Below are positions 12,549-50,200 of a DNA stretch of 64,000 bases, in pieces. The DNA is taken from the NCBI GenBank assembly GCA_000165345.1, contig CM000436.1:96001-160000 (forward strand), read 5' to 3'. A program made the position numbers and the translations under genes. Position 1 is the first letter of the stretch; each line of letters opens with the position of its first letter. A model generated the notes under the pieces. That model did not search any database, was not told the DNA's origin, and saw nothing but the letters and a program-made list of their open reading frames with translations.

Positions 12549-14891
12549 TTATAGCAACTGGATTGGTAAGGTAGAATCTTCAATATTCTGTATTAAGTTG
12601 CAGATCTTTTCTCTAATTTCTTTATTATCATTAGGTTCTGTTAAAATTATTCTTTCTTTATAAAGTATATTAACTATAACATTTCTTTTGTTATCTCTGG
12701 TATCTTTTACCGAAAAATAAAAGTTTGGAAAGTTGTCTTTTTTACTATATTCATCAATTTCAAGATTCTTATCCTTAATTTGAGCTTCTATTTGAGGATG
12801 AATACCATCTATACATAATCCATAGTTATTTTCTATAGATGATCTTAAAGTATTATATATTTCAATGTCTGCTAGGCTATTTTCATCCTGTTTATTTTCT
12901 GATAGAAAAGCAATATAATCCAGAATCATGAATGAAAGAGTATCTACTACCAAATCACATAATTGTGAAGAATTCCATTGAATTATTAACTCATGATCAC
13001 CAAGATCATGCCCATCCTGTCCAATTTCTTTTATTATATATATTACAATACTATTTTCATATAGATAAATCATTTCATTATTTAATATAACATCATCAAA
13101 AGATTTCTCAATTTCTTTCTCCAATTTGTTTAGATCCATTACAAAATTCTTTGGTAATGGTATTCTCATTGTTTGTTTAATACAAGACTTTTTCACATCA
13201 ATGATTTCTGATACATCTTGTGGTTTCATTAATAATGTTGGTTCAAAAGGGCGCATAATCAATAAAGTTTCCTCAATATCAATTTTAGAACTTTCTCTTC
13301 TTATTTTTTTAATACCATTATTACTATTCATATCAATTTGATTATCTTTCTCTCCTTTAACAAACAATTGCTTCTCATTTTCTTCTTTTTCTGTCAAATT
13401 CTTGATTNCATTNNNAATGCTTCCAATTGCATGTATTGCTTGTTGTGTAGGGAAAGTTAGTCCTACTTTTTGAAGAATTTCAGGAGCAAAAACAGCCAAA
13501 GATGGAGATAATTCTTTTAGCTTATCTTTAAGCTTCTTGCATTCTCCTCTTTCTCCATGAACAAGAATAACATTTGGGACTTTTAAACTGTTTATAAACT
13601 CTTGGGTCTGAGTAAAATCAGAGTGTGCTGAAAACGATATTTGGTCAAATTTAGCTCTCATTGGGATAACTTTTTCTCCAAGTTGAATCATTTCAGGCTC
13701 CTTACGAAGTTCATAAGCTGGTGTGCCTCTAACTGCATATCCTGTCAATATGATTCCATTTCTCTTATCTGGGGCCCAAATTTCAAAAATGTCACGGGAT
13801 GTACCATTTTGAAGCATACCTGGAGCTGCCATTACTACACAAGGACCTGGATTATAGATAATATCTTTAATTTCATTAAGTGAATTGACTGTTTTAATAT
13901 AATTGAATTGAAAAGGATTAATTCCTAAATCTGCTTGTCTTCTAACAGAATCTCCACACTGGTTGATATATGTCTCAAAGACTCTCATACATTTAATTGA
14001 CATAGGGGATGCATATATGATTGGAACATTTTGGATTGATGGAGTTCTCGACCAGTGTTCTTCTAGAATTAAAAGAAGTTCTTGAGCTCTGCCAATAGCA
14101 AATACTGGAAGCAAACATTTTCCTTTTCTTGTGATAATTGACTGAACTCCACCAAGAAACCTTTTTTCTCTATCAATTCGTGGTTCGTGTATTCTTGTCC
14201 CATATGTAGATTCACAAATCAAGACATGCACATCTATTGGAGGTATTTCTGCTCTTGGAACATGACGATCATCTTCTCTACTATAATCACCAGTATAAAG
14301 AATTCGAACTCCTCCAATTTCTACTAGAAACATACAAGCTCCCAATACATGTCCAGCTCCATAGCATGAAAATCTGATTCCATCCAGTTCAACTTGTTGT
14401 CTAAAATCGATAATTTCTGTCATATTAATAGCTTTCTCAATATCTTTTTCCGTATATAAGTTAATACTTGATAATGGTGCTTCCTCTGATTCGATGCTTC
14501 CGGCGGAGAATTTGTTAACTCTTGCATAGTCTTGCCAAACTAGTTTACAAATAGCCTTAGTAGGTTCAGTCATAAATACTTTACCATTAAAGTCTGTCAA
14601 ACTAACAAAGTAAGGAGTTGCCCCAGAATGATCCAAATGAAAATGAGTAATCAAACAAAGATCGATAGTACTCACATCTATTGCATCAAATACCGGAAGA
14701 GATCCAATGCCTGAAAATGCTGGATGTATTCCACAATCAAACATTACTGAACGACCTTTGAAGGATACGACAACGCATGAACGACCTACTTCACATCCTG
14801 CTCCAAGAACTTGAATATAGAGAGTCTCCCCTTCTATATCAATAGTCTGTTCAGTCACTCCTGAGTCCAAAACTACTTCATTGTAACTCAT
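12549..14891 (-). CDS. CPSF3: Cleavage and polyadenylation specificity factor 73-kDa endonuclease (CPSF73/CPSF3), 780 aa
   Basis: N-terminal metallo-beta-lactamase motifs (GAGCEVGRSCVVVSFKGRSVMFDCGIHP, ITHFHLDHSGATPYF), beta-CASP region and C-terminal domain. Ambiguous bases at 13408 and 13413-13415 give X residues. Confidence 0.85.
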   Translation of the reverse strand: MSYNEVVLDSGVTEQTIDIEGETLYIQVLGAGCEVGRSCVVVSFKGRSVMFDCGIHPAFSGIGSLPVFDAIDVSTIDLCLITHFHLDHSGATPYFVSLTDFNGKVFMTEPTKAICKLVWQDYARVNKFSAGSIESEEAPLSSINLYTEKDIEKAINMTEIIDFRQQVELDGIRFSCYGAGHVLGACMFLVEIGGVRILYTGDYSREDDRHVPRAEIPPIDVHVLICESTYGTRIHEPRIDREKRFLGGVQSIITRKGKCLLPVFAIGRAQELLLILEEHWSRTPSIQNVPIIYASPMSIKCMRVFETYINQCGDSVRRQADLGINPFQFNYIKTVNSLNEIKDIIYNPGPCVVMAAPGMLQNGTSRDIFEIWAPDKRNGIILTGYAVRGTPAYELRKEPEMIQLGEKVIPMRAKFDQISFSAHSDFTQTQEFINSLKVPNVILVHGERGECKKLKDKLKELSPSLAVFAPEILQKVGLTFPTQQAIHAIGSIXNXIKNLTEKEENEKQLFVKGEKDNQIDMNSNNGIKKIRRESSKIDIEETLLIMRPFEPTLLMKPQDVSEIIDVKKSCIKQTMRIPLPKNFVMDLNKLEKEIEKSFDDVILNNEMIYLYENSIVIYIIKEIGQDGHDLGDHELIIQWNSSQLCDLVVDTLSFMILDYIAFLSENKQDENSLADIEIYNTLRSSIENNYGLCIDGIHPQIEAQIKDKNLEIDEYSKKDNFPNFYFSVKDTRDNKRNVIVNILYKERIILTEPNDNKEIREKICNLIQNIEDSTLPIQLL
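13408..13415. other. Ambiguous bases (N) inside the CPSF73 CDS
   Basis: n at 13408 and 13413-13415. The frame is preserved, so these are base-call ambiguities rather than a gap. Confidence 0.9.
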
Positions 14892-15235: not shown

Positions 15236-16225
15236 TCAAATTGAAAATGATTTGTAGTTTCCAATAGAAAATTTTGAGACGTTGTTATTAAAATAGTCAA
15301 TAAATGAATTTACAGTTTTTATAAGCTCCAGTTTGATTGTTTTTACAATTATGTAGTCTGGTTGATTATTCTCTTCATCAGGATCAAGACTTAGGTTATA
15401 TTCACCGAATGAAATATGATCTCCAATAAGTTTCGGTAATATTATTAGTAGTCTAAGTAAGTGCTCAATGCCAAATATTTCAGAAAATTTGGTGCTTTTT
15501 GTAATATTCTTCTCGAAGTAGCTAACTTGATTCATTTCTGATGGGTAAATAAGTCTCTTTTTGAGAGATTTATTGAAAATCTTTGTCAACATATTTAAAA
15601 TCAATTTCTGAATCTCTATTTCAGGGGAAGTTTCTTTCTTTTTCTTTATTAGATTACTTTCATAGATGATATATTCTGAAAAGATATCCTCAATGTTTGG
15701 GCTTTTGGGTAATATCACCAATTTTCCGTGACTTATTTGGTTTTTGTCATGTATCAAGACACTGTATATCATCTCAGAAAATTCAAACCATTCAACTTCT
15801 ATTTTATTAAAGTTTAATATTGAAATTTTCATCTCTTGTTGGGAGTGAAGCTTTCCAAGCATATCCTCAACTATTGCTCGATCTTGGTCTTTTAAGGCAT
15901 TTCGAAGCATTTTCTGAGTTTCAGCACTTTTTTTTCTCGTATATCCATCTATTTCAAATATGAGAGCTTCTGACTTCCACTCATTATAATCTTTATTGAA
16001 ATAATAATTCTTACTCCCAGTCTTGTGCTTTGTTACATATCCCACATAGTAAATGGGGTGCCACCCATTTGGATGTATTTTTAATGAAGTATCTAAAATA
16101 ATTGCTTTCCATAGTTGACCTTTCCATAATGAATAAACCAAATCACCGATTTTATGCTTAAATTTTACTTCATCCTTAACATTATGGGAGTGCAGCTCCT
16201 GGACTAATTTCTCCACATTTTTCAT
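15236..16225 (-). CDS. MRG/Eaf3-family chromatin protein (N-terminal chromo-barrel or tudor-knot, C-terminal MRG domain), 329 aa
   Basis: N-terminus (GDLVYSLWKGQLWKAIILD...YYVGYVTKHKTGSKNYYFNKDYNEWKSEALI) resembles the MRG15/Eaf3 chromo barrel (…YFIHYSGWNKNWDEWVPESRV). The C-terminus (KLVILPKSPNIEDIFSEY…GIEHLLRLLIILPKLIG) resembles the MRG domain (QLFYLPAKKNVDSILEDY…GAPHLLRLFVRIGAML). Confidence 0.65.
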   Translation of the reverse strand: MKNVEKLVQELHSHNVKDEVKFKHKIGDLVYSLWKGQLWKAIILDTSLKIHPNGWHPIYYVGYVTKHKTGSKNYYFNKDYNEWKSEALIFEIDGYTRKKSAETQKMLRNALKDQDRAIVEDMLGKLHSQQEMKISILNFNKIEVEWFEFSEMIYSVLIHDKNQISHGKLVILPKSPNIEDIFSEYIIYESNLIKKKKETSPEIEIQKLILNMLTKIFNKSLKKRLIYPSEMNQVSYFEKNITKSTKFSEIFGIEHLLRLLIILPKLIGDHISFGEYNLSLDPDEENNQPDYIIVKTIKLELIKTVNSFIDYFNNNVSKFSIGNYKSFSI

Positions 16226-16801
16226 TGGTTTCTATTTTTATCTAATATTAATAAAGTTGAACCTTGATAAATAACTAAATTACCACAACTTGAGTTTATC
16301 ACTCACATAAATTAGCTTAATCAATAATGATTAAATCAAATGTTAATATTAGCCTTTCTTTATTTTATTTGCTAATTTATTATTTTGTTTCTTTTTTCCC
16401 TTTCAGTTACTACATATTATACATGCCTTTTGTCTTGTCTGTGTTTAATAATATACCAGAAATTCATATAACAGCCTTTTTCCCCAAATTTTACCGCGCA
16501 TTTGACATTTTTATTTTTTAGGCCCATTTAAAATAATTCACACGGGCCCCACGTCTTGTCTCCAAAATAATTAAATATATTATTTAATCTTATTGGTATT
16601 GGCATAATGTCAAATAATTAGCATTAGAATGTGTAATGACTAGACAATAATATTCGAAAATGTATTTGAATAATTGTGATTAGCAAAATAAATAGTCTGA
16701 ATTAATATAATGTAATGAGGAGAATTTGATCATTAACCAAATTTTTTTTGAATTATTATAAATAATCTGAGATAATAAGATAAAAATTTTGAATTTCCAT
16801 A

Positions 16802-16818
16802 TAAATTAATCGGTTGGT
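16802..16818. repeat. (GGTT)4 microsatellite in the MRG–HDAC intergenic region
   Basis: cggttggttggttggtaa read directly. Confidence 0.7.
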
Positions 16819-17069
16819 TGGTTGGTAATTAAAATCTGTTTGTTCTTTAATTCTGGCTAGGTCAGATTCAAATATAATATTAATTGTGGTTTTATGAATC
16901 TTGAAATTTCAAGATCAAGGATTAATCTGAATTTATGACCAATCTTTAATCTCATTTTTTTTTTTTTGTGAAAAAACTCTTGGACTTCTTTTTATTTCCT
17001 ATATATATATTATAAGCGTGTATATAAATATATGCATAAAATATATATATTTAAATAAATAAAGGAAAT

Positions 17070-19991
17070 ATGGACCCGGACAAAAGTCTAAATGATCACC
17101 AATTAAATATTAAACAAGATGAAGTTTCTCTTCAAAGCTTACCAATAGATAATGATTTAAATCTGGACCACTCACAGAATAACTCACAAAATATTGATAT
17201 TTTCACAGTTAATGCTGATACAATTAATGATAGTAAAGATCAAAATAGTACTAATGAGTTAAATATGGAGGTTATTTCTGACCAAAAATCAACAAATCAA
17301 AGTGAAGATTTTGGCTCTAGGTCAAATTTAGATCAATTGATTAAGTATCCATTATTGGATAGTTTCAATCCCAAACCTGGATTCTTCCAGAAGCTGATTC
17401 ATTCTCGTGACTCAAAAACTCTGAAGGAGTACATTTTCAGCCCAATGAGATGTATTATCAACGATAGGGACTCATCAGGGTGTACTGCTCTGCACATTGC
17501 ACTTTTGAATGCTTATCCGGAGATGCTGGAGATCCTCTTAAGCTGCCAGTCAGAAGATTTAAGACCAAATAATAGTACTGAAAATACTTATATTGCTGGT
17601 GATTCTTTATCAAATACTGCGTACCAAAATAATAATATTATTCCAATTGATTTGTCTATTCCATATGCTGGTATACCAATTTCTCATCTAGTACTTTGTA
17701 AGGCAATTTTTCCAGAGAGATATGAGGATTGTATGAATTGTTTATATCTTCTTTTGCCTTTTACATTAACTCATGGTACTTCTCAAAATGTATCATGGCT
17801 GGATATTAACGCTACAGATCAGCTTGGAATTACTGCATTACATTTAGCATGTAGCTTTGGTGATTCAAAAATTGTATCTTTATTACTAGAATATGGTGCA
17901 TTAGCAAATATTTCAGATTTGAATAATGATGAACCAATTCATCATGCCATATCAAGCAGAGATCCTGATACGCTTTCTGTAATGCTTTCAAGTGGAGGTG
18001 CTGACCCATTGAAAGAAACAACTTGCACAGCGAACTTAATAAAATGTTGTATAGATAAATCAGCGTGGAGATGCCTTCATACATTACTGACAGATTCAGA
18101 ATATCAGCAACATCCTATTTCTGAGAGTGAATATGATTTGCTTTCTTTTCATGCACAAAAACTGGGATTAGGATCTGAATTTGAAAGAGTATTTTCTATA
18201 GCTGTTGAAATTGCCACTAATGATGAATCCGAGCAAAGAAGGGTAGGAATAAATGAAAGTCTAATTGCAGATGGCCCTTCAATGGGACTAGCTTCAACTA
18301 GAATATTCACACATGGTTGTTGCATAGACCATATTTCTCTTCCAGAACCAATGGATATGCCAATTAGACGTTCAAAATTAGTGAATAAGATTCCAGAGAA
18401 TCCAACACGTATGGAAGTATTAGTCAAACCAAATGTTGGAATTTTAAAGAGTAATGAGTTTTCATTACTTCAATGGACTGAGTCGTGTAAGCCTGCAATA
18501 TTATCAGATATTCTTAGAGTTCATGATTGGGCATATGTTCGTTTATTACAACATAAGGTTGAAGAAAGCCGATTAATTTGGGATCAAAGACCATTTCTTA
18601 CCGGATCTATAGATGATGATACCCAGTTAACTCCAGGTTCTTGGAAAGCAGCTTTACATGCTAGTGGCTCAGTTATTAATGCCGTTGATTGTGTCTGCAG
18701 AGGCGAGAATCGAAATGCCTTTTGTGCTATAAGGCCTCCTGGACATCATCTTGGAACATGGGGAGCTGCGCAAACAGTTGGTACTGATGAAGGAATTCCA
18801 TCAGGATCACAAGGATTTTGCCTATTAAATAACGTTGCAATAGGTGCGGCTTATTGTAGGTATACATACTCCAATTTAGGTATTTCAAAGATTGCTATTA
18901 TAGATTTTGATGTGCATCATGGTAATGGTACTGAACAAATTGTCCGAAATGCATCTCCAGGAAATAGGAAGATCAAAACATTGTTTAATCCAGTTCCTGG
19001 TATCAACTTGGATTTGGAGCAGGATATATCTTATTATAAGATTTGGAGGGATGAACTTGATGCGGAAAATATATTTTTTTCAAGTGTTCATGCGTATGAT
19101 GGCACATTTTATCCAGGTACAGGGCCAGATCAATGTATTTCTAAGCCTAATATTATTAATATTGGACTCTCAGAAAAGACCACTTCAAAAATCTTCAGGA
19201 ACAAAATTAAGAGATTTTTGTTACCAAAGCTTCTTCAATTTAGGCCTAATATTATTTTCATTTCAGCAGGATTCGATGGCCATGTTATAGATATTGTGGG
19301 AAAAGGATTCACTTCATGCACTGAGGGAGATTATGCATGGCTTACCCAACAGCTGATAAGTATTGCAAATCTTTGTTGTAATGGTAGAATTGTATCAGTT
19401 TTAGAAGGAGGATATAATACAAAAGCTTTAAGCCTTTCACCTCTGGCAAAGTCTGTCGCAGCTCATGTGAGAACTTTACAGTGGACTTCTCCAAACTTAA
19501 TGCCAAATCCACAAGAGTGGGATGATGAGTTATTAACCGAAGATAATGAAGATCTTGAGAATGAAGATAATGATATAACTGATCACAGAGATTCTGGCGT
19601 TTTTGACGGCTATCCCAATAATGATCTAATCGCTTTTGGTAATTCAAATGTTATTAGCTATAATGCTGATAATCTGAACAATTCAAGCAATTCTAATCAT
19701 TATGTTGTTGATACTGGAGGAGAAGCATCTTATTCACCAAGCTTGAAAAGATATAAATCTCAAGAAAAGAGCGAAACAGATGAAAACCCGCCATCTAACA
19801 ATGATTCATCTTCAGCAGTATTTTCTAACTCTCAAATGGGGAGTTATGAAGTTCATAGCAATGCTAGTAATGTTATTAGGCCAAAGCGAGCAGCGGCGAT
19901 TAAAGCTGAAGAAAGTATCCAAAAGAAGATTCAATCTGAATTGGATTCTTCAAAACAAATTAATGGCAATAACTTGAGCGAAAATATTTGA
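17070..19991 (+). CDS. Histone deacetylase with N-terminal ankyrin repeats (class II-like HDAC), 973 aa
   Basis: Ankyrin repeats (GCTALHIALLNAYPEMLEILL; GITALHLACSFGDSKIVSLLLEYGALANISD). HDAC catalytic motifs CAIRPPGHH, FCLLNNVAIGAAY, IIDFDVHHGNGTEQI, SAGFDGH and LEGGYN. Confidence 0.85.
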   Translation: MDPDKSLNDHQLNIKQDEVSLQSLPIDNDLNLDHSQNNSQNIDIFTVNADTINDSKDQNSTNELNMEVISDQKSTNQSEDFGSRSNLDQLIKYPLLDSFNPKPGFFQKLIHSRDSKTLKEYIFSPMRCIINDRDSSGCTALHIALLNAYPEMLEILLSCQSEDLRPNNSTENTYIAGDSLSNTAYQNNNIIPIDLSIPYAGIPISHLVLCKAIFPERYEDCMNCLYLLLPFTLTHGTSQNVSWLDINATDQLGITALHLACSFGDSKIVSLLLEYGALANISDLNNDEPIHHAISSRDPDTLSVMLSSGGADPLKETTCTANLIKCCIDKSAWRCLHTLLTDSEYQQHPISESEYDLLSFHAQKLGLGSEFERVFSIAVEIATNDESEQRRVGINESLIADGPSMGLASTRIFTHGCCIDHISLPEPMDMPIRRSKLVNKIPENPTRMEVLVKPNVGILKSNEFSLLQWTESCKPAILSDILRVHDWAYVRLLQHKVEESRLIWDQRPFLTGSIDDDTQLTPGSWKAALHASGSVINAVDCVCRGENRNAFCAIRPPGHHLGTWGAAQTVGTDEGIPSGSQGFCLLNNVAIGAAYCRYTYSNLGISKIAIIDFDVHHGNGTEQIVRNASPGNRKIKTLFNPVPGINLDLEQDISYYKIWRDELDAENIFFSSVHAYDGTFYPGTGPDQCISKPNIINIGLSEKTTSKIFRNKIKRFLLPKLLQFRPNIIFISAGFDGHVIDIVGKGFTSCTEGDYAWLTQQLISIANLCCNGRIVSVLEGGYNTKALSLSPLAKSVAAHVRTLQWTSPNLMPNPQEWDDELLTEDNEDLENEDNDITDHRDSGVFDGYPNNDLIAFGNSNVISYNADNLNNSSNSNHYVVDTGGEASYSPSLKRYKSQEKSETDENPPSNNDSSSAVFSNSQMGSYEVHSNASNVIRPKRAAAIKAEESIQKKIQSELDSSKQINGNNLSENI

Positions 19992-20723
19992 GCCTTTTTG
20001 TTCATTTTTTCTTTTTAGATAACAATCTCGTTATTGTATATTCATAGCTTTAATTATTATATTTTTTTTTTAAATAGTTTTCTAAAGAAATAATTTTTAA
20101 AAACTTTCTCCTATAAAAATTAGTAAATTACCTATTACGTCATTTTTTACATATAGCTTTTGTACACGTATAATCATCTATATACCGGTATTGCATGCAT
20201 CCACATGAATTTACAAACATCAATAAAAAAAACTTTTGCATGCCTCCCCACATAAGCAATTGCGCGGTACTAGTTAGAGCAAAAAAAAAAAGTGAGTTAA
20301 TTCATTTTAATATTGTAAAAGAGAGGAAATAAAGAGTTTCTAAAAGAGGGTGGAAGGTAGGAATTAATAGCAAATAATTAAGTGACTAAAAAGTAAGGAG
20401 GAGGATAGATGTAAGATTTGGTCTCAGTTGGTGAATTCTTCAAGTTTATTTTGTGTAATTAGAGTTTATTTGCTGAAATACTGTGGATGAGAATCGCGGA
20501 ATAATATTTCTGGTTACTTTTTATATGAAAAGTTTTAATAAATAATTAGGTTTAAGAAAAGAGTGATTTGAATTCTACTGGCTGCTATAAAAAAAGAAAC
20601 CGTAATAAAATTTATAATACTTATACATTGTAACGTTTTTCAAGTAATAGAGCAATAATTACTGATTTTGTGAAATAGAAGAAATTCTGAGTTTTCAAGA
20701 ATCAATGCTAATTTAAGTTTGAT

Positions 20724-23495
20724 ATGCATAATTCAATGAATTTCCATGAAGAAATGGAATTGCGAAATAGCGAAAGTTTAAGAATAGAAAGCGACTTTGA
20801 AACATTTCAAGGACGTAAGAGTAGAACAGGGTATAACAGGTTTTTGAATGATGATGAGGTTGAAAACGTCGTACACATAAAAGATGTACCAATTTATATA
20901 AAATATAATTCAATTTCTTCAACATGTACTAGCACAGCCCCATCCACCCCAAACTCTCGTGAATTTGACCGTCTAGAAAATAATGCAAGACTTAATAACA
21001 ACATTGTAAATAATGAAAGTTTGCCGCTCCGTTCACAAGTTTCTCACTTTGGAAAGGTGGGAGAGGAAGGATTTTGTAATAATACAGGTAATAGTTTTGG
21101 TAGTTCATTATATAATAGAGGAGGAATTTTGGAGAGCTCGAATATGACTATGCAGTTTTTTAACTTCAGGATAGTTAAAAGAAGGCACTATTCAAGTTCC
21201 AGTAACTTATTAAAAAGTTTTAACAGAGTACATATAGAAATGACCAAGCCGAACGATTTTTCTTTCTTATTGAATAGCGATATTAATGATGGAAATGACT
21301 TTCTACACTTGAAATCAGAACAACGACTTTTGGTTGATTTTCAGGAATTTCCGGTGATGCTGGTTGATTTATTGAATAGGTCTAAGGGAAATGGGTTTTC
21401 TGAAAGCTATTTTGATGCAAGAGTGAATAATAAAGGCATAAATATAGAAAAGGAGACAGTATTTCCTGGTATAAATAGGTACGATCCTGGTAATTTACGG
21501 TCCAGCTTTTCTCCATCAGCAAGCGATAATTTGAACTCACTCAAGATTGTTTTGAACTTGAATATTTCAGAAGGAGGGATAGAGCAGTCATATTTAGGGG
21601 GGCTATCTTCAGGAGCAACTTTCAATTCTGCAGTATTAAGTCGGGTTGATTCATCTACATTGCATTTTGTGGAATTAAACCATTACAAGGAAATTGTTCA
21701 CTTATCACTTCCATTTGAGATGGCTAATGAAGCTTTCTTTAGGGACTATATTTTAAGACATTTGAATAATTATTTTGATTTGTCTAATAGACAACAGAAG
21801 ATAATTACTGGCTATGAGGCAGATCTAGAGTCATTAAGGAAGGAAATAGGACTACTTAATGAGAAACTTTCAAAGACTAATTATCTCTCAGCTCAGAATG
21901 AACGTGATATGTCTGAAAAGTTCCAAGCTGAGATTAAGAGAATTTTTGAAAGGTATGAAAACGATTACAATCAGATAAAAATGATTTATGAGGATACACA
22001 TAATAGAGAGTTGGAGCACTGGAACCAAGAAAGATTATCAAATGAAAAGAAAATTAAAGATTTGCAACAACAACTTGACGAACTTGGAAATGCATTTAAT
22101 GAGCTTAGTAAGTCAAAATCTAGCTTGGAAAGGTATATCAAGGATGACAAAGAAACTAATAATGGGCTTAAAGCTAAGCTGGAGGCAATTCAAAGCTCAT
22201 ATGACGTATTATCCAAGATAAAGGATGAGCAGGAACAAGAGTTGAACAACTTAAAGCTGGAGTATAACAGTTCTATTGAGGCCAATAAGACTCTGAGGGA
22301 CGAAATAGATAAAAAGAAAAAAGAAATTAGTGAGTTAGATACCGCATTAGACGATGCATGCAAAGAGATCGAGAAAGGAAATCAAATTATTTCAAGCCTT
22401 CAGACATCTTTGGGAAATGTAGATTCTAAGTATAAGCAACAAATGACAAGTTTTAGTAATCTAAAAAGGAGTTTTCAGCAAATTGAAAGCAAGAATAGGA
22501 ATTTTGAGGAACGGATTAAGGACTATGAACAATCATTGGATGATTCAAATAATCGTCAGGAACAGCTTATAGAGGAAAATGAGAGATTGAGGAAGATTTT
22601 AATCGAAGCTGAGAGACAAATTGAGGTAAATCAAAGCGTCATATCATCATTGAAGAGACAAATATCTATCAATGAATCGAATTTTTATGGCTTTGACCAC
22701 AATTTTAATGCTGGAATGTCCAGGAGTTACTCTAAATCTTATCAGGGTTTATATAATACTATAGGCTCAGGACAAAGTAATTTAGCTTCTCTGAGTGGGA
22801 CCCACTATTCACTCGGAAACTTGCAGCCAGCTATTGCTTCCGTTTCGGCATCTCGAAGTTCGTATCTCGGTACACAATCGATTAACTCTGTCAAACATAG
22901 AAAGAGATCAGAAGCTACATTTGATGCTAATTCCGTTAATAGAAAATATTCTATGTCTGTTCAGCCAAGAAGATCTCAGACTTGGACAATGGAAAGCGTA
23001 AATCATGAACCGAGATACACTAGTGAAGCTTTTGAAGTAAAAAATCAAAAGAGAAGTGCTGAGACATCGAGCTCAAGGGATCGCCAGAGGATTTCAAGCT
23101 CTTTATATTATCGTGATTTAAATGATGGAACCGGACATGGTGGAGGTAGCAATAATAAAAAGGCATTAGAGACTATAGATGAAAGAGCTTCTTCTATTTT
23201 CACTCCACCAAATAACAGGAAAAAATTAGAGGAAGCTGGAAAGAACAGAAATATTAATTCAAAGAATACTACTAAAGCTTATAAGGAAGGAGAGATTCTT
23301 AATATGGAAGGAACTACATCGTTTGATATTACTGATAAAACAGAAGTTGAAAGGAGCGATTACCACGAAATTGACGATATATTATTTCAACTGGAAGGAA
23401 CTGGAGATAGTTTTGAAAGATCAGCCAAAGATTTGACCACTCCAAGACTTAAAACTCCAATTAAGCCGGTAATATCTGACAACAATGGGAGCTAG
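20724..23495 (+). CDS. SAS6: SAS-6-like centriole/basal-body cartwheel protein, 923 aa, with N-terminal low-complexity extension and central coiled coil
   Basis: PISA-like head-domain motif LLVDFQEFPVMLVDLLN (compare SAS-6 LLVDFLAFPQKFIDLL) and NHYKEIVHLSLPF (compare NPFKHLTHLSLKL), followed by about 300 aa of coiled coil. An alternative start is the Met at MTMQFF. A TACCGGTA and GCATGCA promoter sits at 20182-20200. Confidence 0.7.
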   Translation: MHNSMNFHEEMELRNSESLRIESDFETFQGRKSRTGYNRFLNDDEVENVVHIKDVPIYIKYNSISSTCTSTAPSTPNSREFDRLENNARLNNNIVNNESLPLRSQVSHFGKVGEEGFCNNTGNSFGSSLYNRGGILESSNMTMQFFNFRIVKRRHYSSSSNLLKSFNRVHIEMTKPNDFSFLLNSDINDGNDFLHLKSEQRLLVDFQEFPVMLVDLLNRSKGNGFSESYFDARVNNKGINIEKETVFPGINRYDPGNLRSSFSPSASDNLNSLKIVLNLNISEGGIEQSYLGGLSSGATFNSAVLSRVDSSTLHFVELNHYKEIVHLSLPFEMANEAFFRDYILRHLNNYFDLSNRQQKIITGYEADLESLRKEIGLLNEKLSKTNYLSAQNERDMSEKFQAEIKRIFERYENDYNQIKMIYEDTHNRELEHWNQERLSNEKKIKDLQQQLDELGNAFNELSKSKSSLERYIKDDKETNNGLKAKLEAIQSSYDVLSKIKDEQEQELNNLKLEYNSSIEANKTLRDEIDKKKKEISELDTALDDACKEIEKGNQIISSLQTSLGNVDSKYKQQMTSFSNLKRSFQQIESKNRNFEERIKDYEQSLDDSNNRQEQLIEENERLRKILIEAERQIEVNQSVISSLKRQISINESNFYGFDHNFNAGMSRSYSKSYQGLYNTIGSGQSNLASLSGTHYSLGNLQPAIASVSASRSSYLGTQSINSVKHRKRSEATFDANSVNRKYSMSVQPRRSQTWTMESVNHEPRYTSEAFEVKNQKRSAETSSSRDRQRISSSLYYRDLNDGTGHGGGSNNKKALETIDERASSIFTPPNNRKKLEEAGKNRNINSKNTTKAYKEGEILNMEGTTSFDITDKTEVERSDYHEIDDILFQLEGTGDSFERSAKDLTTPRLKTPIKPVISDNNGS

Positions 23496-47245: not shown

Positions 47246-50200
47246 TTACTTATCACTAGCGCTTGCCCCGCTATTATCAGCCTCTGGATTTCGCTCCAGA
47301 ATTACAATATCCTCAATAGCACTACAAGCTGGAACAAATTCATCAGTTGCTAACTCTGCTCTCTCATTAAACCCAAGAAGAACTGGAGTGTTGTGTGTCT
47401 GGAATCCCGTAATCTTTCTTGGATTCCCTGCTTGCCCTACAGTGTCTACCATCTGCCCCACACGTACCAGAGTTTGTATTGGCGCCAATGACGTGTCGAC
47501 TGTGACAACATGTCTGGGAGTAATAGCAGGAACAATTGAGAGTAAAAGATAATGATAATTGCCAAAAAGAATAGTTCTAGACCTTAGAGCAAGATGGAGA
47601 GTTGTGATAATGGAAACCAGACTTATTGGATTTAAAAGAAGTTTGTTTGCGTGGCAAGGATTCACTGTTACGAGACCTTTACCCATATATAGAAAACCTT
47701 GAGCAATTCTGACTGCATAAAGAGCATGCTTATCTTTTCCATAATACGAGGCCAACTGTCTCAGTAAGTTGGCAGTTCTAGAGTTATTTGTCCCTGCTGA
47801 AATTAATCCAAGAGCAAAAATTGCATTAAGAGCAACATCTGGATCGGAATCGTGGGTTAGTTTGGAAATTGTGTCTATCAACACTGGTTTAGGATTTCCA
47901 ATTGAAAGGGCAGCCAAACTTATTGGAACAGCTCTTCTAATAAAAACTGATGAGTATTGAAGGACATTGTCAAGTGCTCTAAGTGCCATTTCAGTTCCAA
48001 TTTCTTCTCCAAGACTTATTAATGCCATGTTTAATACGCATACTAATACTGAAATATCTGATTCATCATCATCCATTTGATCTTCATCCTCAGGTAGCTT
48101 CTTTCCTCCTTTAGCAAGGGTCTCCTCAACAAGAACTCTCTGCATTTCTTGGATCTTAAGTACATCTCCTGATCCTGTGTATGCACACCCAACCACAGTT
48201 TGTCTGCAGTGAGCTCCTATTGGATGAGTTATCGCAGAAAGAGCTTCCAAAGTTGTCTCACAAGCCTCTCGTTTTCCCAAAAAGAGTAATCCTAGACATA
48301 ATCCATAAAGGATACTTAAAGGATCATCTAAGAAGGAATTACTTTCAAGTTGTGAATCTCCTGTAGATTTCTTTTTATCTTCGCCACTATTAGATAAATC
48401 TCCATCTTCCATACTTGCACTAGTGAGTCCAATTGTCAGAAGAAGGTCCAAAACAGCTTCAATAATACTCTGATTTCCGGATCCTGAGAATATTAGTCCT
48501 AATGATAAAGCAGAAATAGCTGAACATTCTAAGCTTGAGAAAGGATCNATNNNGATTGGAATTAGTAATTCCAAGNTATCTTCTCGGCAGGTACCAATAT
48601 ATGAATAACCAAGGCCTAAAATAGCACCCATTCTAATGGTATAGTTTGGAACAGCCGTTTTGATTATTGAAATCTTATTATCATTTGAGTTATTTGCTGA
48701 TTCACCAACTATTTCCATCTTTACATCATCCCCTCCATCTTTACTACCGCTAGTAGCTACCTCTTGGATTGGTTCGTCTCCAGAATTGATATATTCAGAT
48801 AAAAGAGCAAAAGAAGGATCACAGTCGTTCTTGATTCTGATAGAAATTAATCCAAAAGCTATTAGAGCACCAGCTTTAATAAATGGATCATCACTCCACT
48901 GAAACTTATCAATGTTAGCCAAACCTTCATCAATATTCCAAAGATTAATCACTCCCAAGGAGGCACTTACTGCCATCTTTCCGGAATCCTTATTCTTATA
49001 GAGCCAGGATGAATCATCCTCTCCAATTAGTTTATCCTTACAAAATCCAACATTTACTAAGGCATTCACATATGTGGATGCTAAATTCTGTTTTGCTGTA
49101 TCCAAAACCATCATTGATCTACTAGAATACCTACCATTATTTTCCAGGTGGGTCTTGTAAATTTCCTCTGGAGTTTTTGGCTCAAGAACCTCCAATTCTT
49201 TTGCTAAGAATAAATAAAATTTGCTAAGATATTCATTTGAAAAGATACCTTCAATTATGGATAGCTCAGATTCTCCATAGATCTTACAGAAATCCCTGCT
49301 AACTAAATGAGCTTTAAGCTCCTCTAAGTCTATATTACTTGAGAATTTAGCAAGTTGGAAGAAGATTTGCTTCAAAATACTCAATCCTGAGACTCTGAAA
49401 GTGTTTGATGAGCTTGAGATATTAGAATCATTGGCCTCATCCTTAACTTTGTCCTTCTTTGATTCATATGACATTATATCATCTATTACAGAAAATACTT
49501 TCTCTTTACAATTTTGACCATCCAATTTAAGTGCTATAGAAACAGCCCAAGAGTGCTTTTCAAAGCTTAAAAGTAGCTCAAAGCAAAGTTTCAGATATAA
49601 ATCATGTTCTTCTGCTGATATAGCATATTGAGAAAGTTGTTGTAGGTATAATACGATCCTTTCCATTTGTTCAATATCAATTTTAGCTAAATATTCCAAT
49701 AATGTCTCCATTTGCTCGACTTCACAGAGCAGATCAATAGCTTCCAGTTCACAGTGCTTCTCAATCTGATAAGGTACCATAATCTTAACCAGTTCAAGGA
49801 GATCAGAAACATCTGCTTCTTGATCTGAGACTCCTGATAAGTCTTGGTTTGTTTGTCTTTCTGAATATTCTAATGTAATTTCACCTACAATATTTCTGAC
49901 ATACTCTTGACCCCAGTCTAATATTCCTTTCTTGTTTCCAGAAAGTAATCTATACTTTAAAGCTCTTTTCTCTTTCATATCCCCCAAAGTAGTTGATAAA
50001 ACAGAAATAATCTCACAAGAAAGTTCAGAAAGTTGACCTTTATTGGAAACCTGGGAATCACAAAATTCTTTCAGAGTTTCATAATGTATACCTAAGAACT
50101 TTAAAGCCTTTGGAACAGATGTCATTCCACTAGTAGATGTCTTTATTAAGCTCGAAAGGGATTCCAAGCTGGACTTAGAAACCTCAAACTCGGACTTTCC

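Follow-up and report, generated by a model that had tools for sequence, protein, structure and literature searches.

Within a 64,000-nucleotide window of chromosome 8 of Cryptosporidium parvum Iowa II (GenBank assembly GCA_000165345.1, contig CM000436.1, positions 96,001 to 160,000), the gene cgd8_470, which encodes a divergent chromatin reader of the MRG15/Eaf3 family, lies head-to-head with cgd8_480, which encodes the ankyrin-repeat histone deacetylase CpHDAC3. We put the probability at about 0.85 that these are two independently regulated chromatin genes, divergent neighbours within a gene block that is common to the genus, and that the spacer they share does not couple their expression.

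The window has a G+C content of about 30% and long open reading frames (ORFs) without introns. An original prediction, made from the DNA letters alone, had described ORFs of 329 and 973 amino acids in head-to-head orientation around an 844-bp intergenic region, and the coordinates bear out all of this (Table 1). The published reverse transcription PCR (RT-PCR) primers for cgd8_470 map at 15356 and 15451, inside the 329-amino-acid ORF, and those for cgd8_480 map at 19038 and 19119, inside the 973-amino-acid ORF (Mauzy et al., 2012; PMC3305300, Table S2), which fixes the two gene identifiers. Both genes and their domain architectures are already annotated in GenBank with the 2004 genome, and also in CryptoDB.

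Expression of the two genes was compared using the 18S-normalised bulk in-vitro RT-PCR data of the same study, which comprise seven time points in each of four independent 72-h infections, the fourth replicate being on a different scale. The cgd8_470 transcript was undetected at 2 h and climbed to a maximum at 72 h; the cgd8_480 transcript peaked at 6 h and 24 h and fell by 72 h (Mauzy et al., 2012; PMC3305300). Pearson coefficients between the two genes ranged from -0.12 to 0.23 and Spearman coefficients from 0.04 to 0.29 over the four infections, and the ratio of MRG to HDAC transcript at 72 h differed about 80-fold from that at 6 h. The original prediction had proposed co-regulation from a shared promoter and had itself named uncorrelated expression as evidence against that proposal; the RT-PCR profiles are uncorrelated, and the proposal is contradicted. 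In addition, the genome-wide conclusion of Mauzy et al. (2012) was that adjacent genes are not co-regulated (PMC3305300), and Oberstaller (2013) placed cgd8_470 in expression cluster 112, where cgd8_480 is not listed. Adjacency in the compact C. parvum genome should not be taken as functional coupling, as the published expression data already show.

Comparison across the genus showed that the reader gene has decayed in C. muris and C. andersoni. By comparison with the intact gene of C. serpentis, the C. andersoni copy has a GTG in place of its ATG start codon, stop codons in place of K5, Q59, W95 (which is the invariant tryptophan of the cage) and Q173, and a series of indels (-4, -2, -1, -1, -2, +3 and +1). 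The GTG start, the CAA to TAA change at Q59, the 4-nt deletion and further indels recur in the C. muris RN66 copy, whose stop at W157 is its own. These common lesions indicate that inactivation of the gene preceded the divergence of C. muris from C. andersoni and followed that of their lineage from C. serpentis. Introns and sequencing error were both considered as sources of the C. andersoni stops and rejected: the stops lie inside the most conserved blocks of the gene, the slot is identical in three C. andersoni assemblies, and the independent C. muris project shares several of the lesions. In the available annotation the slot holds no gene in C. muris and only a 94-amino-acid fragment in C. 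andersoni.

The ratio of non-synonymous to synonymous substitution rates (dN/dS) of the decayed copies is 0.56–0.69, whereas the adjoining HDAC of C. serpentis, C. andersoni and C. muris, a protein of 956 amino acids that is at least 90% identical among them, has a dN/dS of 0.11–0.15. A pseudogenised MRG gene beside a constrained HDAC gene shows that the two are evolutionarily uncoupled. For cgd8_470 itself the dN/dS is 0.11–0.13 against C. meleagridis and C. ubiquitum, and the MRG gene is therefore under purifying selection in the intestinal clade. Its loss shows that the C. muris/C. andersoni lineage can do without the reader, which provides a natural knock-out for comparative chromatin studies. 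No report of an MRG pseudogene was found in the literature examined, and searches on MRG proteins or chromodomains in Cryptosporidium returned nothing relevant; the matches to MRG were initials of authors and a drug code, MRG-106. This loss is the only possibly new observation made here; the disappearance of the only MRG/Eaf3 protein detected may amount to an unreported and datable change in the apicomplexan chromatin machinery.

C. meleagridis, C. ubiquitum, C. felis, C. ryanae, C. serpentis, C. andersoni and C. muris all share with C. parvum the gene order L5e, DnaJ, CPSF73, MRG, HDAC, SAS-6. Since this six-gene block is syntenic across the genus, conservation of the MRG–HDAC pair is background synteny. 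Taking ORFs of at least 150 amino acids as gene proxies, six of the 21 junctions in the window are divergent, and the 844-bp spacer is the shortest of those six; adjacency of the two genes is not above chance expectation. On two eukaryotic contigs from outside Cryptosporidium that carry an ankyrin-HDAC (L009 and L011), no MRG gene lies within 10 kb of it. A metagenome scan for MRG relatives yielded no confirmed locus, and a profile search in a word-indexed database added only C. serpentis. On the metagenomic contig L009 (45% G+C; region 17390-22290) the ankyrin-HDAC lies about 5 kb from adjacent gene calls with PWWP/FYRN, PHD and SET domains, which may be one split trithorax-like gene.

The spacer was expected from the original prediction to carry a TTTACCGCGCATTTG box at 16489 and a GGTT microsatellite. 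The box is present, starting one nucleotide further on, at 16490, and the microsatellite was found as (GGTT)3.8. The box is E2F-like and lies about 265 bp from the MRG start codon as against about 570 bp from that of the HDAC. Orthologous boxes occur in the aligned spacers of C. meleagridis (TTTATCGCGC), C. ubiquitum (TTTCCCGC), C. felis (TTTCCCGCC) and C. ryanae (TTCCCGCC), each about as far upstream of its MRG start codon as the C. parvum box. The canonical TTTCCCGC stands at the aligned place in C. ubiquitum and C. felis, and the C. parvum version, TTTACCGC, has one mismatch. By comparison with the E2F/DP promoter sites described for Cryptosporidium (Oberstaller, 2013; Xiao, 2025, preprint), the box is similarly GC-rich and TTTSSCGC-like, stands in an AT-rich upstream region and is conserved in position; it differs in the C. 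parvum mismatch and in having no match to the palindromic WSGCGCSW.

Sites of this type are common in the window. Nine of ten TTTSSCGC matches are non-coding, at 0.41 per kb of non-coding versus 0.02 per kb of coding DNA (approximately 20-fold enrichment), and the non-coding sites sit upstream of many different genes. E2F is also the dominant motif of C. parvum peaks in the assay for transposase-accessible chromatin with sequencing (ATAC-seq), more than half of which are annotated as bidirectional promoters (PMC12246861; 10.1101/2025.01.17.633476). We consider that the CCGCGC box, predicted to be of E2F type, is probably a real cis-element but one that is generic for the genus, whose commonest promoter motif is of this E2F-like kind; bidirectional spacers of C. 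parvum usually carry E2F boxes, and the pairing originally claimed matters little. The AP2-type motif TGCATGCA is likewise biased in the window, with 9/10 sites non-coding.

Over most of its length the spacer is 85–98% identical to that of C. meleagridis, and 52–88% identical to that of C. ubiquitum. Two blocks (16597-16745 and 16850-16965) are 75–88% identical to C. ubiquitum, similar to coding DNA, and are not conserved in the C. felis or C. ryanae spacers; a perfect 18-nt palindrome, ATCTTGAAATTTCAAGAT, is present at 16898. These blocks are probably untranslated region (UTR) or promoter sequence. The GGTT repeat is largely conserved and not length-variable in C. meleagridis and C. ubiquitum. 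Spacer length is 770–930 bp in the intestinal species and about 297 bp in C. serpentis and the gastric species. A scan for bacterial promoters and terminators, which is not applicable to a eukaryote, found promoter-like sites to be no commoner than in shuffled sequence.

As originally predicted, cgd8_470 is a divergent member of the MRG15/Eaf3 family with an N-terminal chromo barrel and a C-terminal MRG domain. The profile search proposed as a check on the MRG domain gave a significant Pfam match (PF05712, E=1.5e-21; score 77 bits, cut-off 22.8) at amino acids 141-268, although this spans only profile positions 16-152 of 190. A profile built from 12 Cryptosporidium orthologues, run against the PDB, picked out the MRG domains of Eaf3, MORF4L1 and MSL3, the best match having E=6.8e-13. 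An exhaustive profile search with the cgd8_470 family returned 1,059 relatives at E<=1e-3, several of which align in one stretch from profile position ~21 to 268 and carry Pfam Tudor-knot/MSL3_chromo-like domains at the N-terminal chromo position. Among named proteins outside the genus, the nearest relatives are MORF4L1/2 and EAF3 of animals, fungi, plants and one stramenopile.

The barrel itself has no Pfam chromo or Tudor-knot match, and the PDB sequence profile likewise lacked the N-terminus; it was recognised from its fold and from an N-terminal profile. In the AlphaFold2 model, which is of low confidence (mean predicted local distance difference test score 58; 62–77 over residues 11-60), strands at 29-34, 37-51, 54-64, 82-85 and 89-91 are followed by a helix, all within amino acids 29-112. 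The best Foldseek matches of this model are full-length Eaf3 chains in Rpd3S (8jho_O, E=4e-6; 8tof_D), followed by the chromo barrels of human MRG15 (2f5k), rice MRG701 (5in1) and Arabidopsis MRG2 (4pl6, target template modelling score 0.79), which as a group have E=2e-3 to 2e-2 and target template modelling scores of 0.6–0.8. With a profile restricted to residues 1-125, 10 of 147 MRG-family representatives were matched in their chromo regions at E<0.01 (P0140, 3.8e-11; P0230, 2e-6; P0188, 1.4e-4; seven more below 0.01), these representatives having been retrieved largely via their MRG domains.

The methyl-lysine aromatic cage of MRG15 is formed by Y26, Y46, W49 and W53. In cgd8_470, W39, Y63 and W83 are invariant in the 12 Cryptosporidium sequences and align to three of the cage positions; in place of the canonical GW(N/K)xxW segment stands an insertion of about 10 residues that is rich in tyrosine and phenylalanine (Y74, Y75, F76). 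Judged by these residues, methyl-lysine reading by the barrel is plausible. The protein thus resembles MRG15 (MORF4L1), Eaf3 and Alp13 in the order of its two domains, in its significant MRG domain and in the fold and profile match of its N-terminus; it departs from them in being only 20–25% identical to the canonical members, in a barrel that falls below Pfam thresholds and in the replaced GW(N/K)xxW segment.

The catalytic motifs RPPGHH, DFDVHHGNGTE and EGGY, which the original prediction had called intact in CpHDAC3, were all found, together with SAGFDGH. With its His-His dyad, Asp/His zinc ligands and the catalytic tyrosine of EGGY, the predicted protein matches the zinc-deacetylase signature. 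Pfam ankyrin families match at E=1e-10 to 1e-16, the best stretch being amino acids 244-313, and TALHIA and TALHLA motifs occur at amino acids 141 and 257. The top 60 solved relatives of the deacetylase domain comprise Burkholderia 5ji5, HDAC6, HDAH, HDAC4/7, Clr3, HDA15, Hda1, HDAC10 and Hos3, with no class I enzyme (Rpd3/HDAC1-3/8) among these 60; CpHDAC3 is therefore class II-like (Hda1/HDAC6-type) and not an Rpd3S-type enzyme, in keeping with its designation as class II in the literature (bioRxiv 10.64898/2026.07.12.738121). The nearest solved relative (query, window 18300-19550) is the bacterial Burkholderia structure 5ji5 (E=1.3e-49), ahead of HDAC6, which agrees with a GenBank note on the protein, 'of possible bacterial origin'.

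C. parvum is described as having a single class II HDAC with ankyrin repeats, CpHDAC3 (PMC12246861, Table 1; bioRxiv 10.64898/2026.07.12.738121); cgd8_480 is the same gene as the CpHDAC3 of Rider and Zhu (2009; Int J Parasitol 39:747) and nothing differs. The class I HDACs of the species, cgd6_80 and cgd6_1380, are on chromosome 6 (PMC12246861; bioRxiv 10.64898/2026.07.12.738121). The recombinant enzyme is inhibited by vorinostat and CpHDAC3 is the most abundant HDAC in sporozoites (PMC12246861; bioRxiv 10.64898/2026.07.12.738121; PMC9505670); it is an established drug-target candidate (vorinostat, abexinostat). Ankyrin repeats are combined with PF00850 in every Cryptosporidium orthologue and also in Trebouxia (P0023), a green alga, as well as in eukaryotes from metagenomes, and the architecture is described as apicomplexan and algal in work that PMC12246861 attributes to Rider and Zhu (2009). 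Its presence in apicomplexans, as originally predicted, is thus supported, with Trebouxia in addition; the further claim that animals and fungi lack it was not checked exhaustively.

MRG domains bind an FxLP motif. The tetrapeptide FLLP at amino acids 716-719 of CpHDAC3 (window 19215-19226) formally fits this pattern, and was rejected as an MRG-binding site: situated within the catalytic core and just ahead of SAGFDGH, it is probably a buried structural element.

The known partners of MRG/Eaf3 proteins are class I HDAC complexes and NuA4. Rpd3S (Rpd3-Sin3-Ume1-Rco1-Eaf3), a deacetylase complex directed by H3K36me, resembles the proposed pairing in that an Eaf3-like reader is present and its best structural matches are the Eaf3 chains of that complex; it differs in that the deacetylase beside cgd8_470 is Hda1/HDAC6-like and not a class I Rpd3, and in that expression of the two genes is uncorrelated. 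In the picture that we favour, the chromo barrel of cgd8_470 would, by family, presumably read methyl-lysine; a predicted SET2 (cgd5_400) in C. parvum makes H3K36me the candidate mark. The MRG domain would presumably dock the protein into a complex that is NuA4-like and/or of the class I HDAC (Sin3/Rpd3) type. CpHDAC3 is an active class II-type zinc deacetylase with the ankyrin repeats as a putative protein-binding platform, and the 844-bp spacer would contain the promoter and 5' UTR of each gene, plus an E2F/DP-type site typical of most C. parvum promoters.

Were the genes instead a co-regulated bidirectional pair, with one promoter built around the CCGCGC/E2F-like box driving reader and eraser together, the positionally conserved box within the 844-bp spacer would be accounted for, and the large share of ATAC-seq peaks annotated as bidirectional promoters (10.1101/2025.01.17.633476) would be in line with it. 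We regard this as the least probable of the readings considered, given that four time courses are uncorrelated with peaks at opposite ends, that cgd8_480 is not listed in cluster 112, that adjacent genes are not co-regulated genome-wide (PMC3305300), and that the box is so much nearer to the MRG start codon and the gastric spacer so short. A partnership of the proteins without co-transcription, in which the MRG protein recruits CpHDAC3 to methylated chromatin (e.g. via the ankyrin repeats) as a lineage-specific class II counterpart of Rpd3S, draws on the prediction of both as chromatin proteins, on their adjacency across the genus and on the formal fit of FLLP to FxLP. It conflicts with the class I identity of the HDACs in known MRG/Eaf3 complexes, with the retention of a constrained HDAC in the two species that have lost MRG, and with the lack of an MRG gene within 10 kb on the two non-Cryptosporidium contigs, and we find it very improbable. 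The functional partnership of reader and deacetylase envisaged in the original prediction fails on much the same grounds: the enzyme is class II-like, the pair belongs to a syntenic block, the reader is lost from C. muris and C. andersoni, and the box is generic. Scarcely more credible is the idea that the MRG reader and CpHDAC3 constitute, in intestinal species, a lineage-specific module for methyl-lysine-directed deacetylation that C. muris and C. andersoni dismantled by losing the reader. Such a loss would possibly be linked to the different chromatin toolkit of these two gastric species, in which a DOT1 methyltransferase absent from C. parvum has been kept (PMC12246861).

A third, unannotated element in the spacer, for instance a small RNA or a micro-ORF, would explain both the conserved blocks and the approximately threefold greater length of the intestinal spacer. 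The identity of the two blocks to C. ubiquitum, the palindrome and the minus-strand fold of 16850-16965 (z = -2.6) point towards it, yet the other fold z-scores are -0.2 to -1.9 and the fold signal overall is not convincing. A permissive Rfam scan of 16100-17200 gave chance-level small nucleolar RNA and microRNA matches only (best E = 1.6, scores 18–20 versus gathering thresholds of 50–90), the supplements of the long non-coding RNA catalogue list nothing for either cgd8_470 or cgd8_480, the 64-amino-acid ORF at 16327-16521 is low-complexity and conservation of the blocks does not extend to C. felis or C. ryanae. We therefore judge such an element unlikely. Some points do weigh against the reading of two independently regulated genes: co-expression in a minor stage could escape bulk RT-PCR; the two genes have stayed adjacent in all Cryptosporidium species examined and, in a three-way alignment, blocks of the spacer are as conserved as coding DNA, which leaves room for some shared regulatory element; and methyl-lysine reading by cgd8_470 is uncertain because the insertion replaces one canonical cage tryptophan.

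Table 1. Features of the cgd8_470/cgd8_480 locus and of orthologous MRG loci. Positions refer to the window unless a contig label is given.
Feature	Position	Strand	Basis or remark
cgd8_470, 329 aa, MRG/Eaf3-like	15236..16225	minus	ORF; exact protein match EAK87491.1, C. parvum Iowa II
MRG domain, aa 141-268 (Pfam)	15422..15805	minus	PF05712; helices extend to ~aa 319
Divergent chromo barrel, aa ~24-92	15950..16156	minus	AlphaFold2 strands, Foldseek, N-terminal profile, alignments
Divergent spacer between both start codons, 844 bp	16226..17069		
Putative E2F-like box TTTACCGCGCATTTG	16490..16504		one mismatch from TTTSSCGC; ~265 bp upstream of MRG ATG
(GGTT)3.8 short repeat	16812..16826	plus	Tandem Repeats Finder score 30; unique in window
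cgd8_480 = CpHDAC3, 973 aa, ankyrin-repeat class II-type HDAC	17070..19991	plus	ORF; exact match EAK87492.1
Ankyrin repeats: one near aa 134-165, two to three at aa 244-313, non-repeat insert between	17469..18008	plus	Pfam Ank_2, Ank_4, Ank, Ank_3, Ank_5
Zinc-dependent deacetylase domain, aa 442-789	18393..19436	plus	PF00850 Hist_deacetyl, E=1.7e-62
RPPGHH, aa 555-560	18732-18749	plus	
DFDVHHGNGTE, aa 612-622	18903-18935	plus	
SAGFDGH, aa 732-738	19263-19283	plus	
EGGY, aa 779-782	19404-19415	plus	
Canonical TTTSSCGC sites	1553, 9868, 15096, 24748, 29805, 30687, 31074, 50756, 53455		
Decayed cgd8_470 orthologue, C. andersoni LRBS01000045.1	L001:8499-9690	minus	
Decayed cgd8_470 orthologue, C. 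muris DS989727.1	L012:2151-4000	minus	
Intact cgd8_470 orthologue, 409 aa, C. serpentis	L008:6001-7230	plus	

Non-ACGT bases occur in the window at 13408, 13413-13415, 48548, 48551-48553 and 48576; those at 13408 and 13413-13415 fall inside the CPSF73-like ORF (12549-14891) and give X residues in its translation. The cgd8_490 primers of Mauzy et al. (2012) have no exact match in the window. On the plus strand, the ORF at 20724-23495 encodes a homologue of the centriolar protein SAS-6, with a match to the SAS-6 N-terminal domain (PF16531, E=4e-15).

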